Shown piece by piece: positions 8,136-45,427 of a stretch of DNA of 64,000 nucleotides. Made by a program: the position numbers and the translations under genes. Every line of letters starts with the position of its first letter. Position 1 is the stretch's first letter. Location of the stretch: assembly GCA_951812785.1 (NCBI GenBank), contig OX638335.1:1443653-1507652 (forward strand), written 5' to 3'. The notes beneath the pieces were generated by a model, which did no database searches, was not told the origin of the DNA, and worked only from the letters and a program-made list of their open reading frames with translations. Source of the stretch: an uncultured Gammaproteobacteria bacterium. Its GTDB lineage: Bacteria; Pseudomonadota; Gammaproteobacteria; UBA4575.

Positions 8136-8504
8136 TTATCCAATGATCATGCTCATGATCCAGCCCAGAAAGGTATCCAGCAACCAGAGAAATAACCCCA
8201 CCAGAACCACGACAACCAAAATTACCAAAGTCGTCTGCAGTGTTTCTGCACGGGTAGGCCATACCATTTTGCGAACTTCTGTTCGCGCAGACTGCATAAA
8301 TCCCATTAATGCACGACCTTTTGTCGTAGTTAATGCTATTCCTGCAGCAATAATTACAAACAGTAGTATACCGAGTACACGGTATAACTGAGGCTGATCC
8401 GCAAATTGATAAAACCCGTAAAAACCAACTAGCAAGAGAACGGCGGCCAATATTAGTTTGACTTTATCCATCCCGCTATTTGTTTGTTCAAGCGTTTCGG
8501 CCAT
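8136..8504 (-). CDS. secE: preprotein translocase subunit SecE
   Basis: 122-aa membrane protein lying between tRNA-Trp and nusG, as in the E. coli tufB-secE-nusG arrangement. Confidence 0.85.
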   Translation of the reverse strand: MAETLEQTNSGMDKVKLILAAVLLLVGFYGFYQFADQPQLYRVLGILLFVIIAAGIALTTTKGRALMGFMQSARTEVRKMVWPTRAETLQTTLVILVVVVLVGLFLWLLDTFLGWIMSMIIG

Positions 8505-19273: not shown

Positions 19274-20476
19274 CTAAATAAAGGGCCTTGACCCACTGCT
19301 GTCCCAGTAACGCGGCGCCAAAGATAAACTAAGTTGAGGTGAACCATGTTTATCTGGTTTTACTTTATTAAATAAACTGAACAAATCGCGCCTAATAAAT
19401 AAATTGGTATGTAGCAGACGAATGATCTGTTGCATGCTTTGTGTTATTTTTGATTGACACTGCATAAATGCAATGAGCAAATAAACACACAATGCTGCTA
19501 GCACTTGAGTCAAGACCGCATTTTTACTGATCCCTAGAAAATTCTTAATCTTTAAGTTTTGTTTAATCCACTTAAAGCATAATTCCACCTGCCAACGTTG
19601 TTTATAGATGTCGGTAATGGTTTGAGCAGACCAATCAAAATGATTGGTGATGAATGCATAATGTTTACCTGTCTGTGGGGCTTGATATCCAACACGACGA
19701 ATGGGGTACAACTGATTGCCGGCACGTTGTTTTGAGGTGTATTTAATGATTTGATCGCGTGTAATGTTGCTGTTTTCAGCGATGGGTTTGCGCTCCACCA
19801 CACGATATAGCGCATTACCTCGAATACGTGTCACCCAATAAATTCCCTTATCTGTTAAGGCTTTATGCCATCGGTAGTGATTGTAGCCCTTGTCAAAGAC
19901 CACTACGGAACCACCAGGAAGGTTTACCACTTCATTTTCAGAAATACAGCTTTCCGTGACCCGCGCGAAGCTTGGAATCAACCCGTCGTGATCTAAGCCC
20001 AGATGCAGTTTGAAGGCGGCTTTCTTGCGATTGTAATCTGCCGAGGGAAACAGTTTCATCAAAGCATCTAGCAAACTACCATCTCACGAAAACAACTTCC
20101 CTTTGCATCGAAACCCATGTCGGGGTGAGTGATGTAAACAACGTTGATAGAGTTGTTCGAACAAAGAAGCATAAAATTGATAATCGCGTTGTTCATTGGC
20201 GCGTGCCAGGGCTGATTTACTGACCGACTGACAACCTAAATGGTAGTGTGTATATTGTTGGTTGATCAGACAACTTTCAATATCACGTAAACTTTGGCGG
20301 CCATTGAGTTGCCCCACGGCTAATGCCACGAATTGGCTCCAACGCGATAGTGCCATCAACCTGATTCGCGAGGCGTTCAAATTCATGTCTCGGGACCATT
20401 TTAAGCATCTGAGATAGGACAGTGTTACAATGCGGCATGGCTTAAATCTCCTTTGTATACAGTGTTTTCTAGACAA
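19274..20476 (-). mobile_element. IS4-family transposase with an in-frame TGA (reads as two ORFs); whole IS spans about 19279-20553
   Basis: ORFs 20084-20476 and 19274-20074 are in the same frame, separated by TGA at 20081-20083. ~30-bp terminal inverted repeats (AAGGGCCTTGACCCACTGCTGTCCCAGTAA at the left end; its near-perfect complement at 20523-20553). Confidence 0.8.
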
Positions 20477-39042: not shown

Positions 39043-39077
39043 CCATTTAACTATTGGTATAAAATACTCCAACTACT
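39043..39077 (+). promoter_or_regulatory. CC PAM plus seed-matched target site of the adjacent psi-spacer; overlaps an extended -10 (TGgTATAAA, 39055-39063) that faces the mini-CRISPR
   Basis: Positions 1-14 of the site match psi-spacer 39096-39128 except at positions 6 and 12; 22/33 overall; CC immediately 5'. Confidence 0.55.
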
Positions 39078-39156
39078 GAAAAAGCAGCTTAGAAAATTTA
39101 CCTATTCGTGGTTATTTATCCATTTACTGCTTACTGCCGCATAGGCAGCTTGAACC
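39068..39156 (+). ncRNA. degenerate mini-CRISPR (psiR1-psiS-psiR2), candidate crRNA-like regulator of the CreR/CreA type
   Basis: psiR1 at 39068-39095 matches 19/28 but ends in a perfect GCAGCTTAGAAA 5' handle. 33-nt psi-spacer at 39096-39128. psiR2 at 39129-39156 matches 22/28 and keeps the intact hairpin CTGCCGCATAGGCAG. Orientation is opposite to the cas genes. Confidence 0.6.
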
Positions 39157-42100: not shown

Positions 42101-42545
42101 TAAAGCCCATTTTATTCTTAGGCTTCAATTTTTCCTGGAACAGTTGGCTGGCTTTACCCCAATCATGCAAAAGCGCGGCAATAGCCACCAAGGCTTTAAT
42201 TAAGGGTAAATACGCCCAGTCATTTTCAATATGAGAATTTAATAAATTTCGCCTCGTCGTGTTAACGGGCACGGCTCCTTCGCGATCAAATTTCTGACGA
42301 TTACCCACCACCCAAACCAACTCACTACGCGCACGGCTGCGTATCCAATGACAGCTTACCGCAGTGTTTTTACTGGCAGTTTTTCTAAGTAATTTTTTTA
42401 CTGCCAGTAAGCCTTCCTGGGTGATAATTGTTTGCCAGGTGTTATCGCCAATGCGGTTGGCGAAGGCATCAAGCACACGGCGACTGCGGGCGTGGGCTTT
42501 TTTTTCGCATTGACTAACAAAGGTAACCATCATGACCAAAGACAC
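39183..42545 (-). CDS. cas3: Cas2-Cas3 fusion (Cas3f) helicase-nuclease
   Basis: 1120 aa with an N-terminal Cas2 domain (..VSQCEKKAHARSRRVLDAFA..HWIRSRARSELVWVVGN..), HD nuclease and SF2 helicase. The ORF-track start is GTG at 42545; ATG codons 4-5 codons downstream are more likely the real start. Confidence 0.93.
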   Translation of the reverse strand: MSLVMMVTFVSQCEKKAHARSRRVLDAFANRIGDNTWQTIITQEGLLAVKKLLRKTASKNTAVSCHWIRSRARSELVWVVGNRQKFDREGAVPVNTTRRNLLNSHIENDWAYLPLIKALVAIAALLHDWGKASQLFQEKLKPKNKMGFKGDPIRHEWISCLLLNALIQMHQGDTNNVNDSGWLETLAKGDIDEAKIKAIASKQQTNPLKNLPPIAKLVAWLVVSHHRLPLNKDVDMRAECCPNIDNVLCLVTQQWGYENNYDQAEYKQRVEQCFNFPNGLLSASQPWLKQIKKWSQRLLACESQVLQSLNDGSYRSVLNYARLCVMLGDHYYSSQNADKKWQDKLGLFANTDFKTKALKQKLDEHLVGVARHGLNTAHLLPAFEAEPPIAQDITALKKLSPGEFRWQDKAVDNIKHWRKNNTQKQGFFAVNMASTGCGKTFANAKVMQAVSNDGNSLRFILALGLRTLTLQTGDEYRERVGLDATELAVLIGSRAVMALHQQAKTETEELSFEASGSESQETLLDEEVDYDCAIPEEGMTTVLREQRDKKFLYAPVLACTIDHLMAATETKRGGRYILPTLRLMSSDLVIDEVDDFTGEDLVAIGRLIHLAGMLGRKVMISSATITPDLAEGYFKAYRDGWLIYCKSRDASATVGCAWIDEFNTVVASNHGLQVRDAIPAYRSEHVKFVEKRVAKLVKQPVKRKADITPCEQIFADFTHSPNDENVIASKQQAYFKIITDSVLTKHQHHHMVDQQSQLAVSFGVVRMANIQPCIALARYLLKMDLPADVQIRTMPYHSQQVLLMRHKQEQHLGQVLKRKEDIDEQPKAFLNTVIRQHLEHIKRTEPQVKHVLFVLVATPVEEVGRDHDFDWAVVEPSSYRSIIQLAGRVRRHRKIGVEVPNISLLQYNWRGVRDKHLENGKVFNRPGFEDQIRLASHNLNDLLDADALLQRVDAIARIQKSKDLQPKKQLADLEHYVICKLLANYGRDGNGPAQLQGYLREAWFLTAYPQHIVSFRKSPPSLKVFLAFDENKQACTFCEKNEKGFPVPRELPLGIDRVQLATEASKRLWLQRDFEAEIASMADAQDMSMRRASLRYGELSFWHDESAKYKYNDQFGLVRV

Positions 42546-42699
42546 CCGTTACCCAGATAGGTTAGAATCCGGTTGTCGTCTGGCCAAGAATCGACAACCA
42601 TCATCTTGATGTTTACAGCACAAACGAAATGCTGCATCCAAAGGGATTTGCGAGTGACATTGCTTACCACACAATGTTTCAGCTCACCCCTTAGGCGAC

Positions 42700-42728
42700 A
42701 TATTAGAAGCAATCTAAAAATATTTCAA
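42700..42728 (-). promoter_or_regulatory. candidate sigma70 promoter for cas2-3 (TTGAAA-17-TAATAT)
   Basis: -35 TTGAAA (complement of 42723-42728), 17-nt spacer, -10 TAATAT (complement of 42700-42705). It is separated by one nucleotide from the CC PAM of the psi-spacer target. Confidence 0.45.
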
Positions 42729-42730
42729 TC

Positions 42731-42752
42731 CCTATAAAGAGTTATTTTAGCA
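42731..42752 (+). promoter_or_regulatory. CC PAM plus seed-matched target of psi-spacer 42800-42819
   Basis: CC at 42731-42732; the next 10 nt (tataaagagt) match the psi-spacer perfectly; 15/20 overall. Confidence 0.55.
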
Positions 42753-42771
42753 AATAATCTGCTATACTTTG

Positions 42772-42847
42772 AATATCTGCCGTATAGGCAGCTTAGAAAT
42801 ATAAAGAGTCGTTTTACACGTTCACTGCCGCACAGGCAGCTTATTGA
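42772..42847 (+). ncRNA. degenerate mini-CRISPR with a 20-nt psi-spacer, second candidate CreR/CreA-like crRNA-like gene
   Basis: psiR1' at 42772-42799 (22/28) keeps a perfect hairpin plus handle CTGCCGTATAGGCAGCTTAGAAA. psi-spacer tataaagagtcgttttacac at 42800-42819. psiR2' at 42820-42847 is GTTCACTGCCGCACAGGCAG with an intact hairpin, then degenerates to cttattga. Sits in a 345-bp gap between cas1 and cas2-3, in the opposite orientation. Confidence 0.6.
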
Positions 42848-42890
42848 TTCGGCAGAGATTATGGTTGTATGCATATTTGGCCTGCTATAG

Positions 42891-43829
42891 CTATTCGCCA
42901 AGACTAACTTGCTTCACCTGTTCAAACATAAAATCCAGTGCTTTGTGCTGGGTAAAGTTTTGCAGACATTGTTGGCGAAACTCCTGTTCGCTGGAGTTTT
43001 CCTTAGCACAGATAAAAGCCCAGGGCAGAATCAATGTGTCCTTTACCAAATCGGCAATATCAAAGACCAATGCACCACGACGAGTTTTACCATGCATCAC
43101 GGCAAACCCATGTGGAATGCCCAGTACCCAAAGGGTGGTTGCGGCTAAACCATAAGCCAGGTAATTGCCATGATTGAGAAAGGCATTGGCAGTATCTTCG
43201 GCTTCGTGGGTGCGGGTGAAGTCGCCATACTCGGTGCGGGTAGCGGCCAGTTTATACAACCATTTGGTGAGCTGGGCTTCGGTGTTGAGTAGTTCACTGA
43301 CTCTGGTGCAATGTTTTATTCTGTTGATGGCGTTATCTAATGCGCTTTTTATTGATGGGTCGTCGCTTGAAAAGCCTTCGCTCTTGAGATCGCGGTCACG
43401 TGACCAAACTTGTTGTAAAAATTCAATTCTTGCCTGCTGGAATTGTTTAGCAGCTTGCAAGCGCTTACTGTCGTCAAACCAGAATTGCATCCACCCTTGC
43501 ATATATTCGGTGGGACGATATTCGCTTTGTGGTGTCAGCCATTCAATTTCATTAGCCATAAGTAATGGTGTGCCACCTCCACCACAAAAACCAACTAATA
43601 CACCAGCTTGTGCGAGCATACGCATAGCTGCTTGAGTAATAGATGTGCCTGTTCCCAATAACAAGCAGGTGGTATTGGCAATCGGGATATTCCAATACTG
43701 GTTTTCTTCTTTGGCTTCAGTAAGGTACAAAACACGGCCATCTTTTTGCATGACGCGACATTTTTCAAGGTAATAAATGTTCGCTCGCTTAGAATGGAGG
43801 ATGGCTTTCAGGTCAGTCAGTTGATCCAC
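42891..43829 (-). CDS. cas1: Cas1 integrase (I-F type)
   Basis: 312 aa, MDQLTDLKAILHSKRANIYYLEKCRV...; first gene of the cas operon. Confidence 0.93.
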   Translation of the reverse strand: MDQLTDLKAILHSKRANIYYLEKCRVMQKDGRVLYLTEAKEENQYWNIPIANTTCLLLGTGTSITQAAMRMLAQAGVLVGFCGGGGTPLLMANEIEWLTPQSEYRPTEYMQGWMQFWFDDSKRLQAAKQFQQARIEFLQQVWSRDRDLKSEGFSSDDPSIKSALDNAINRIKHCTRVSELLNTEAQLTKWLYKLAATRTEYGDFTRTHEAEDTANAFLNHGNYLAYGLAATTLWVLGIPHGFAVMHGKTRRGALVFDIADLVKDTLILPWAFICAKENSSEQEFRQQCLQNFTQHKALDFMFEQVKQVSLGE

Positions 43830-44593: not shown

Positions 44594-45427
44594 ATAACCA
44601 TTGTTGTATCTCTTTTTTATTAGCTAACACTAGTTGTTGGGCTTCTGGTTGGGCATCGTGAAATTTAATATTCACTTGCATTTCTTGCAGTAGATAATGG
44701 GTGAGTGTAGCACGAGTAGGAATAACAATTCACCTTCTTGCATCATATATTCTTGTTGAATCACATTTTTTTGTTCGCGGCTTAAACGACTGTCTGGTGC
44801 AAGTTTTACATCAATGAATGTGTTCCAAGCTACATCATCGGTACTAGTGTGAGTCGCATTGTCTAACAAGCCAGCTTGACCTACAAAACGGCTAAGTACA
44901 AAGTCTCTAAATGCCTTATTTTTTTCGTCGTAAGCACGCAAATGCCACCTTAGCCCAGTTTTGACAAACACATGAGGCTGAATAACTCGACCCTGATTAT
45001 TTGGATTGCTTAAGGAAAGATATTCCACGTCTACCCGCTTCTTTTGTTTAGTAGCTTGCACCAATAAGCACATAACTTAGGGAGTAACGTAACGTCTAGG
45101 CAAACTTAGAGAGGAGCTGGTTACTCGATGATTTCCTTTAGGCTCAGCAGCTAAAATTAAACCATTATGATCTAACCAATCTAAGTATTCGCTGGCATCA
45201 CAACTAATAAAAACTGGAGAGAAGTTTTGTGAAGCAACAAACCCTTTTAAACTAGGTTGATACACTAGGTTTTCAGGGTGTTCTTGTTGGTAATAAGAAA
45301 GATATTTCTGGGCTTGTGTTCTACTAATACCAAAGTATTGGCTTACTTGTGTACTATTAATTGAACCTTGCCAAAATGCCAATAACTCAATGAAATAACA
45401 CCTAACGTCCGTATTGGATTGACTCAC
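44594..45427 (-). pseudogene. WYL-domain transcriptional regulator of the BrxR/CapW type, with an in-frame TAA and a C-terminal frameshift
   Basis: N-terminal wHTH segment (45077-45427), WYL-like core ..VKTGLRWHLRAYDEKNKAFRDFVLSRF.. (44672-45073, same frame, separated by TAA at 45077-45079), and a WCX-like tail readable only after a frameshift (..IVIPTRATLTHYLLQEMQVNIKFHDAQPEAQQLVLANKKEIQQWLFDT*). Confidence 0.55.

Follow-up and report, generated by a model that had tools for sequence, protein, structure and literature searches.

A probable crRNA-like guide between cas1 and cas2-3 of a chromosomal CRISPR-Cas locus of type I-F, with the nuclease-helicase gene as its predicted target

Regulatory mini-arrays, or CreR guides, have been described in type I CRISPR-Cas systems (Shmakov et al. 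2023, PMC10120712; Liu et al. 2023, bioRxiv 10.1101/2023.03.10.532045), where their targets are effector promoters, namely those of cas8 (subtypes I-E and I-F1), cas10d (I-D) and cas6 (I-B). The I-F1 mini-array of Pseudomonas aeruginosa (tested case YL84) represses the Cascade promoter with Cascade alone (PMC10120712), the output of CreR responds to the load of CRISPR RNAs (crRNAs) and to anti-CRISPRs (bioRxiv 10.1101/2023.03.10.532045), and the I-F1 regulatory mini-arrays described to date lie between cas2-3 and csy1. Here we consider a 64,000-nt stretch of contig OX638335.1, from an uncultured gammaproteobacterium (the whole stretch is referred to as the window), in which a degenerate two-repeat mini-CRISPR lies between cas1 and cas2-3 of a type I-F locus, on the plus strand and thus opposite to the cas genes. 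We judge it probable, at about two chances in three, that this interval encodes a functional crRNA-like guide of the CreR or regulatory mini-array kind and that the guide regulates cas2-3.

Several further systems bear on this proposal. In P. aeruginosa, the mature CreA1 RNA is 48 nt long, with a pseudo-spacer (psiS) of 20 nt, and its repression, exerted from a site upstream of the -35 element, exceeds 90%; CreA is found "almost always" between cas2-3 and csy1 and controls a 15-nt mini-open reading frame (mini-ORF) with two proline codons, flanked by a Shine-Dalgarno (SD) sequence and a G+C-rich hairpin (bioRxiv 10.64898/2026.06.02.729485). An I-F CreA/CreP pair in Acinetobacter baylyi ADP1, and CRISPR-supervised immune systems, are also on record (PMC12980059; bioRxiv 10.1101/2024.12.27.630466), the regulated gene being a KilA-domain toxin or another defence system beside the Cascade genes. 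The I-Fb system of Acinetobacter baumannii has a separate cas3 promoter controlled by H-NS and BaeR (PMC12625773), so that an I-F cas3 may own a regulated promoter, the regulators there being DNA-binding proteins and not a self-encoded guide RNA. Where a position is stated, the I-F crRNA-like regulators in the literature are all in the cas2-3/csy1 gap, beside the Cascade genes, and the genes controlled in the described type I cases are Cascade genes, a toxin or another defence system. We found no published guide that sits in the cas1/cas2-3 gap or is directed at a cas3 promoter, although the supplementary tables of Shmakov et al. could hold an unremarked example.

Set against these systems, the unit in the window appears to be the same device as CreR, but in a new place, on a new gene and doubled at the locus. 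As in CreR, a degenerate psiR1-psiS-psiR2 unit, antisense to the cas genes, keeps the parts of a mature guide (the 5' handle and the Cas6 stems), and its spacer makes a seed-anchored partial match, with the I-F pattern of mismatches at every sixth position, to a cas-promoter site flanked by a protospacer-adjacent motif (PAM); the complex would likewise be expected to bind without cutting, and the resulting autorepression to respond to crRNA load and to anti-CRISPRs. Unlike described CreR units, it stands between cas1 and cas2-3, its target abuts predicted promoters of the nuclease-helicase gene, and the window, like a Methylomonas locus introduced below (L069), holds a second, unrelated guide in the usual position. 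With P. aeruginosa CreTA1 and CreTA2 it shares the I-F subtype, the 20-nt psiS and 48-nt RNA (predicted here) of CreA1, the CC PAM, the retained psiR1 handle, both psiR hairpins and a target upstream of a -35 element; the mismatches of the P. aeruginosa guides fall at positions 6 and 12, and the window, unlike P. aeruginosa, has no such mini-ORF, its SD-like string being base-paired. Like A. baylyi CreA/CreP it is a (predicted) crRNA-like guide within a type I cas operon with a neighbouring promoter as the proposed Cascade target, and unlike in the CRISPR-supervised systems the stretch from the target to cas2-3 contains no additional protein gene. The parts of the unit and of its target are as follows.

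42772 to 42799, plus strand: psiR1, aatatCTGCCGTATAGGCAGCTTAGAAA, with hairpin and handle intact and the 5' five nucleotides degenerate
42777 to 42791, plus strand: psiR1 hairpin, CTGCCGTATAGGCAG, intact
42792 to 42799, plus strand: 8-nt handle of psiR1, CTTAGAAA, intact
42800 to 42819, plus strand: psiS, the 20-nt pseudo-spacer, TATAAAGAGTCGTTTTACAC
42820 to 42847, plus strand: psiR2, GTTCACTGCCGCACAGGCAGcttattga, with the first 20 nt kept and the last 8 degenerate (cttattga)
first 20 nt of psiR2, plus strand: GTTCACTGCCGCACAGGCAG, the 3' handle and Cas6f hairpin
42760 to 42768, plus strand: candidate extended -10 element of the mini-CRISPR, TGcTATACT, read by eye
42731 to 42732 (CCC at 42730 to 42732), plus strand, which is the non-target strand: CC PAM, followed by the 20-nt protospacer at 42733 to 42752
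42773 to 42744, minus strand: P1, promoter-like TTCAAA-18-TG-TAAAAT from the consensus scan, directed toward cas2-3, with its -10 within the protospacer
42728 to 42700, minus strand: P2, promoter-like TTGAAA-17-TAATAT from the consensus scan, directed toward cas2-3

The repeat, spacer and target coordinates of the initial annotation, which had recognised an oppositely oriented mini-CRISPR with an intact psiR1 hairpin and handle and a psiR2 decayed only at its end, agree with the sequence, and the element is real. The Rfam model CRISPR-DR4 (RF01317) matches psiR2 at 34 bits (E 5e-5, model positions 1-28) and psiR1 at 31.3 bits (E 3.4e-4, model positions 6-28), both on the plus strand and both just below the gathering score of 35, as expected of partial repeats. 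Measured against the repeat of the adjoining 238-repeat array (GTTTACTGCCGCACAGGCAGCTTAGAAA), which lies on the other strand, psiR1 is unchanged apart from its loop and its first five bases, and the changes in psiR2 are confined to position 4 and three of the last four bases. By this comparison the retained parts are exactly those of a mature I-F crRNA (a 5' handle of 8 nt and a 3' hairpin tail of 20 nt, the latter held by Cas6f), and the predicted mature guide is a 48-nt RNA spanning 42792 to 42839. Outside the 238-repeat array the repeat hairpin occurs in only three copies in the 64 kb, all on the plus strand, of which those at 42777 and 42825 belong to the cas1/cas2-3 gap and that at 39134 to the cas2-3/csy1 gap. 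The unit does not resemble an ordinary array, consisting as it does of two partial repeats and one 20-nt spacer (versus approximately 32 nt) inside the cas operon. Among 98 distinct short I-F mini-arrays from metagenomes, spacers of 20 nt are more frequent than those of any other length. Transcription is predicted to start at approximately 42775, at the foot of the psiR1 hairpin, and the sole terminator candidate after psiR2 is the psiR2 hairpin with its T-rich tail. In the predicted fold of the mini-array transcript, nothing other than the repeat hairpins was significant (z 0.02); a 7-nt complementarity, TCTGCCG at 42776-42782 with CGGCAGA at 42850-42856, brackets the guide unit and dominates the predicted precursor fold, which is no better than that of shuffled sequence.

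The target site lies 67 nt upstream of psiS. The protospacer after the CC is TATAAAGAGTTATTTTAGCA, of which TATAAAGAGT, at 42733-42742, is the seed-matched part, and psiS matches it at 15 of 20 positions, namely 1-10 and 13-17 of the guide. The five mismatched positions are 11, 12, 18, 19 and 20, of which 12 and 18 are flipped out and unpaired in I-F complexes (PMC10120712). The CC with its 10-nt seed occurs once in the window, and a CC-flanked 10-nt seed anywhere in the gap was reached by 4 of 20,000 composition-matched shuffled spacers; the match and PAM of the original reading are confirmed. The consensus scan likewise recovered the minus-strand promoter that had been proposed toward cas2-3 (P2), adding P1 as a second site, and it places two nucleotides (42729-30), not one, between the PAM and the -35 element of P2. 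A scan of viral contigs for the handle plus the seed returned two identical matches without hairpins, which we judge to be chance. The possibility of a phage RNA anti-CRISPR (Racr/Cracr) was rejected, given that the mini-CRISPR lies inside a chromosomal cas operon and that the viral matches are only hairpin-less ones.

The arrangement was then sought in 80 loci encoding a Cas1 of 77-85% identity, in 71 of which the cas1/cas2-3 junction is visible. The two genes overlap or nearly touch in 49 of the 71 (in 45 of these by 4 bp, with the cas2-3 ATG over the cas1 stop codon) and are separated by 100-1400 bp in 22. In the window cas2-3 starts at the ATG at 42533, to judge from the Cas3f profile, which aligns from residue 1, and from the relatives, which likewise start MMVTF; the gap is therefore 42534-42890, or 357 bp instead of the 345 bp first given, and, having been called unusual, it is uncommon but not exceptional, gaps of at least 100 bp being present in nearly a third of the relatives. 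An antisense two-repeat mini-array occupies this gap in three of the 71 relatives, namely Amphritea atlantica (L017), a Thiohalomonadaceae metagenome-assembled genome (MAG; L067) and a Methylomonas MAG (L069), and a relaxed hairpin-plus-handle search of all 22 gaps revealed no others. The three loci are distant from the window (Cas2-3 identity of 39-51%, Csy1 identity of 26-31%), and their pseudo-spacers, of 21, 32 and 26 nt, are each distinct. In every one the 5' end of the pseudo-spacer matches a same-strand CC-flanked site 82-84 nt upstream, with seed runs of 13, 18 and 18 when mismatches at positions 12 and/or 18 are tolerated, and none of 20,000 shuffles did as well in any locus; mismatches inside the paired stretch are mostly at those two positions. 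The repeats show the same selective decay as in the window, the psiR1 hairpin and handle and the first 20 nt of psiR2 being spared, and the psiR1 stem of L017 carries a compensatory double change (CTACC/GGTAG).

As in the window, the seed-anchored, PAM-flanked match in L017, L067 and L069 lies at a predicted cas promoter. The PAM is 0-7 nt from, or overlaps, a -35 element in L067 and L069: the -35 TGGACA of L067 overlaps it, and in L069 a TTGATA-16-TATACT promoter begins one base from it and the -10 of a second promoter falls within the protospacer, matching the two-promoter layout of the window. In the modules of the csy1 gap the PAM is likewise close to a -35 element (by eye). Promoters for the mini-array itself end just before psiR1 in L017, with analogous ones in L069, and in L067 a terminator with a 10-bp stem stands right after psiR2. 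The mini-array is directed at cas1 in all four loci, with a toxin-antitoxin pair intervening before cas1 in L067 and L069, and the only feature common to the four downstream of the target is cas2-3. The sequence between target and cas2-3 differs among them: the window and L067 are approximately 75% identical over some 100 nt, the L069 leader runs to approximately 85 nt and lacks both an SD and a mini-ORF, and the L017 interval is approximately 225 nt. In L017 (~8140-8300, plus strand) a strong ribosome-binding site, GGGAGAGG, is followed by a 49-codon ORF (MLFFKLVRRVILRLV...), possibly a small protein under guide control. The cas2-3/csy1 gap of L017 (~55 bp) and L067 (~25 bp) holds no module, so that the cassette there appears to head the cas2-3-csy1-4 operon, whereas L069 and the window have a second module with an unrelated guide in that gap. 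That four independent guide/target pairs share one geometry is a strong argument against chance or decay as the source of the arrangement.

The cas1/cas2-3 gap is also an insertion spot among the relatives (L001, L004, L006, L015, L019, L033, L036, L041, L052, L063, L065, L067, L068, L069, L071, L074 and L077). Most of the 22 gaps contain either opposite-strand type II toxin-antitoxin pairs or apparent KilA-N, Bro-N, RhuM or Fic-like genes that run with the cas genes (assignments made by eye from translations), and no mini-array is detectable beside the sense-strand genes. In several Cas1 relatives (L005, L010, L047, L048, L034, L024 and others) only the Cas2 part of the window Cas2-3 was matched downstream of cas1, over approximately 97 residues at approximately 80% identity, and the remainder of Cas2-3 must in those relatives be much more diverged or differently arranged.

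The system to which the unit belongs is complete and chromosomal and lies on the minus strand; all six of its I-F proteins, Cas6f included, clear the NCBIfam I-F equivalog cut-offs, and the rpoB, tuf, uvrC and RNase E/G-family genes that flank the cas operon indicate a chromosomal context. Its main features are listed here.

43829 to 42891, minus strand: cas1 (Cas1f), stop codon at 42891; NCBIfam TIGR03637, 499 bits; upstream neighbour of the mini-CRISPR
42533 to 39183, minus strand: cas2-3 (Cas3f); NCBIfam TIGR02562, 975.8 bits over profile positions 1-1109; the gene proposed to be regulated
38802 to 34953, minus strand: csy1-3 and cas6f
34822 to 20575: CRISPR array of 238 repeats, directly downstream of cas6f

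The repeats at the far end of the array are degenerate (GTTAGCTG..., ...GGAA), and that end adjoins an ORF for a DDE transposase (19274-20074). Just upstream of cas1, a WYL-domain protein of 133 aa is encoded on the minus strand (44672-45073); WYL proteins are regulators of some CRISPR-Cas loci.

The second module of the window, in the cas2-3/csy1 gap, comprises the following parts.

39043 to 39156: the whole module
39043 to 39044: CC PAM, with the protospacer running from 39045
39088 to 39095: handle
39096 to 39128: 33-nt psiS
39129 to 39156: psiR2

Its protospacer mismatches are at positions 6 and 12, and on the minus strand TTGAAA-17-TATGCT directly follows the complement of the PAM. The initial annotation had taken the two modules to be the same, and this is borne out for their design; the guides are unrelated, and the leader RNA that follows the target in the cas1/cas2-3 gap is homologous to leaders before csy1 in other genomes and not to that of the cas2-3/csy1 gap of the window itself, which gave no match to the family even with filters off. 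The family was defined with a covariance model (R1) built from the window, L067 and L149, and it has nine members.

42560 to 42701 of the window, minus strand: structured leader RNA of ~140 nt, between P2 and cas2-3, ending 26 nt before the ATG at 42533
L067, 8856 to 8998: leader
L149, 3478 to 3612: leader
L068, 7800 to 7935: leader
L066, 11420 to 11556: leader
L107, 177 to 318: leader
L143, 4901 to 5041: leader
L197, 2287 to 2414: leader
L031, 11295 to 11440: leader

The window scores 145 bits, the best in the family. The leader precedes cas2-3 in two members (the window and L067) and csy1 in the other seven, where it lies directly before the csy1 ribosome-binding site, and this membership indicates that the cassette before cas2-3 is homologous to cassettes that elsewhere control csy1. 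All nine end 12-26 nt before the next cas start codon, without a terminator, and all but one stand behind an antisense mini-array with a CC-flanked target, the exception being L031, which also lacks hairpin 1. In the alignment 90.2% of cells are paired and 34 of 43 pairs are changed on both sides, a result equalled by none of 500 shuffles and compared with approximately 40% pairing in slid controls; the alignment was fitted to the model, and these figures therefore lean toward structure, but the margin is large. The leader begins with a purine-rich stretch and ends in a G+C-rich hairpin, and its conserved single-stranded motifs are CACUC, UGGAUG, AGUCA and UUAACA, UGGAU being invariant in the nine and UGGAUG present in eight. 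No Rfam family matches it, and a metagenome scan for the conserved block CCTTNGGATGCAGCANTNCGTNTGTG gave no matches. Within I-F cas operons the leader is a candidate for a new cis-regulatory RNA, and, from the UGGAU motif and the GGA of the ribosome-binding site downstream, it might be bound by CsrA/RsmA.

Coding readings of the leader were tried and rejected. They comprised ATT-GTG-TGG-TAA, a TTG frame of 41 codons, an ATG frame of 35 codons that closes with ATGA where cas2-3 begins, and the shared strings MQH[FY]VC and PxDA; in the nine members the base pairs are conserved, whereas the frames, starts and stops are not.

The reading that we favour is that of a functional guide regulating cas2-3, because the decay of the repeats is selective and spares the parts of a mature guide; because the guide-target match is PAM-flanked, seed-anchored and rarely or never equalled by shuffled spacers; because distinct guide/target pairs recur, with a spacing of 67-84 nt, in loci whose Cas2-3 proteins are only 39-51% identical; because the PAM adjoins or overlaps a cas2-3-directed -35 element in the window, L067 and L069; because cas2-3 is the sole shared feature downstream; and because the leader family elsewhere sits behind ordinary csy1-gap modules. 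The CreR and CreA1 precedents in I-F systems of P. aeruginosa, and the full I-F set (Cas6f included) encoded at the locus, point in the same direction. The crRNA-guided feedback on cas2-3 that was suggested at the outset gains support from the recurring pairs in L017, L067 and L069, and the functional steps that follow are those we infer. Transcription on the plus strand from approximately 42775 would give a precursor that Cas6f would cut after each hairpin, at 42791 and 42839, releasing the 48-nt RNA with its 8-nt handle (CUUAGAAA), 20-nt guide and 20-nt hairpin tail. A shortened Csy (Cascade) complex would load this RNA and bind the CC-flanked site at 42731-42752, the guide pairing with the minus strand along its seed and at five further bases; such limited pairing would be expected to permit stable binding without recruitment of Cas2-3 or cleavage, in the manner of CreA and CreR. 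Once bound, the complex would mask the P1 -10 and adjoin the P2 -35, reducing initiation toward cas2-3. Read-through from cas1 would be blocked too, the guide being paired with the non-template strand, as general type I CRISPR interference (CRISPRi) behaviour suggests, and the promoter of the mini-array would probably itself be damped, its -35 region lying in the protospacer. The output of cas2-3 would accordingly fall when free Csy complex is plentiful and rise when Csy is inhibited, as by DNA-binding anti-CRISPRs, or titrated by crRNAs of the 238-repeat array. The locus would then contain two orthogonal self-repression loops, one with a guide for the nuclease and the other with an unrelated guide for the Cascade genes in the cas2-3/csy1 gap. 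That each of these loops is built from a portable cassette (guide gene, PAM-to--35 target and leader), with the leader a new post-transcriptional regulatory RNA, is a more tentative proposal, which we think somewhat less likely than not; that the leader is instead a new kind of CreT-type RNA toxin is less likely.

Several observations count against a regulatory guide and keep our confidence in it limited. The arrangement is rare, in that only 3 of 71 Cas1 relatives possess it and that none of 120 short-spacer mini-arrays from metagenomes lies in a cas1/cas2-3 gap (the placeable ones are mostly in the cas2-3/csy1 gap, with nine located 750 bp upstream of cas1), and selection for the element is therefore not general. 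The collections contain no close relative of the source genome, the best nonidentical Cas1 being 85% identical. The guide-target match of the window is the weakest of the four, with a seed of 10 nt and a mismatch at position 11, and P1, P2 and the other promoters discussed are consensus matches only; in L017 the hexamer that directly abuts the PAM, TTGCAT, was seen by eye only. The plus-strand TATACT at 42763-42768 that had been proposed to drive the mini-CRISPR fares unevenly, having the extended -10 form and the analogues in L017 and L069 in its favour but no -35 match, in the absence of which the consensus scan does not list it.

The most developed alternative, already raised in the initial annotation, is CreTA-type addiction, in which the guide would be an antitoxin silencing a toxic RNA or peptide encoded in the approximately 160 nt between the target and cas2-3, and loss or inhibition of Cascade would arrest the cell. 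The arrangement has precedent, a creA guide with a toxin ahead of a cas gene, sometimes sharing a promoter, being documented in I-F systems of P. aeruginosa and A. baylyi, and the interval does hold a conserved structured RNA with a purine-rich 5' end and a G+C-rich terminal hairpin; the ribosome-binding site and 49-codon ORF of L017 occupy the equivalent place, and L031, the sole member without an upstream mini-array and also without hairpin 1, would fit an inactivated toxin. Against this, the "strong SD" on which the proposal leaned, AAGGGGTG, proves to be one strand of helix 2 of the leader, base-paired with CCCTT in a helix that compensatory changes preserve (seven sequences with GC, two with AU), and the loop of hairpin 1 contains ATT-GTG-TGG-TAA. 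Across the nine leaders neither a start codon nor a frame nor a stop is kept: the start-codon position reads ATG in four, AAG in two, CTG in one and GTG in one, L031 is without the segment, and stops are scattered. The leader contains no proline codon pair and, as had been noted before, no run of rare codons; the short leader of L069 is without SD or mini-ORF; and the nine leaders, closing just ahead of a cas start with no terminator, resemble 5' untranslated regions. Thus we found no toxin gene in the form of an SD, a mini-ORF and a stabilising hairpin, or of a toxic protein, the leader instead running into cas2-3, and we consider addiction unlikely.

Much the same low standing attaches to the view that the interval is an inert relic, the decaying copy of a regulatory cassette or of a piece of an array that came to lie between cas1 and cas2-3 and is no longer active, which we think improbable. 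The rarity of the position, the readiness of this gap to receive insertions in relatives, the comparatively weak match in the window and the lack of a close relative in which purifying selection might be tested would all suit a relic, but decay would not spare just the 23 and 20 repeat nucleotides needed by a mature guide, would not keep a PAM-flanked seed with two of five mismatches at positions 12 and 18, and would not account for the recurrence of the arrangement, with different guide/target pairs, in four divergent loci or for a leader that stands at the top of its family. A role in cis, in which antisense transcription from approximately 42775 into the 3' end of cas1 insulates cas1 from cas2-3 and the guide is secondary, agrees with the constant orientation of the mini-array toward cas1 and with the want of a strong terminator after psiR2 in the window, while the L067 terminator could act both ways; it leaves unexplained the PAM-flanked guide/target pairs that covary between loci and the retained Cas6f hairpins and handle, and the toxin-antitoxin pairs of L067 and L069 would keep the antisense transcript from reaching cas1 directly. 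We regard it as very improbable.

Other mini-arrays were encountered in the same survey. At L085 (10465-10515) a mini-array with psiS ATATATATAATGGTTATCATA shares the strand of cas1 and precedes that gene by 750 bp, near-identical copies being present in L090, L110, L113, L115, L157 and L191-L193; it has a CC-flanked partial match just downstream and a RhuM/Fic-like ORF before cas1, and it is similar to the I-F "Fic" cases noted among CRISPR-supervised immune systems. Short-spacer mini-arrays in the cas sense, and not in the usual antisense orientation, occur in the cas2-3/csy1 gap of L082, L099, L111, L116, L121, L130, L135, L136, L154, L156 and L168.

In summary, if the unit between cas1 and cas2-3 is a regulatory guide, its placement on the cas2-3 promoter would put the most hazardous part of the system, a processive nuclease-helicase, under the direct control of the free surveillance complex. 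Cas2-3 also forms the adaptation complex with Cas1, and guide control would uncouple the expression of cas2-3 from that of cas1. Cells could then raise Cas3 when Cascade is blocked or is saturated with crRNAs, as the 238-repeat array here might bring about, while self-damage and spurious primed adaptation would be limited at rest. The presence of two unrelated guides in a single locus, in the window and in L069, would exemplify natural, multiplexed and orthogonal autoregulation.

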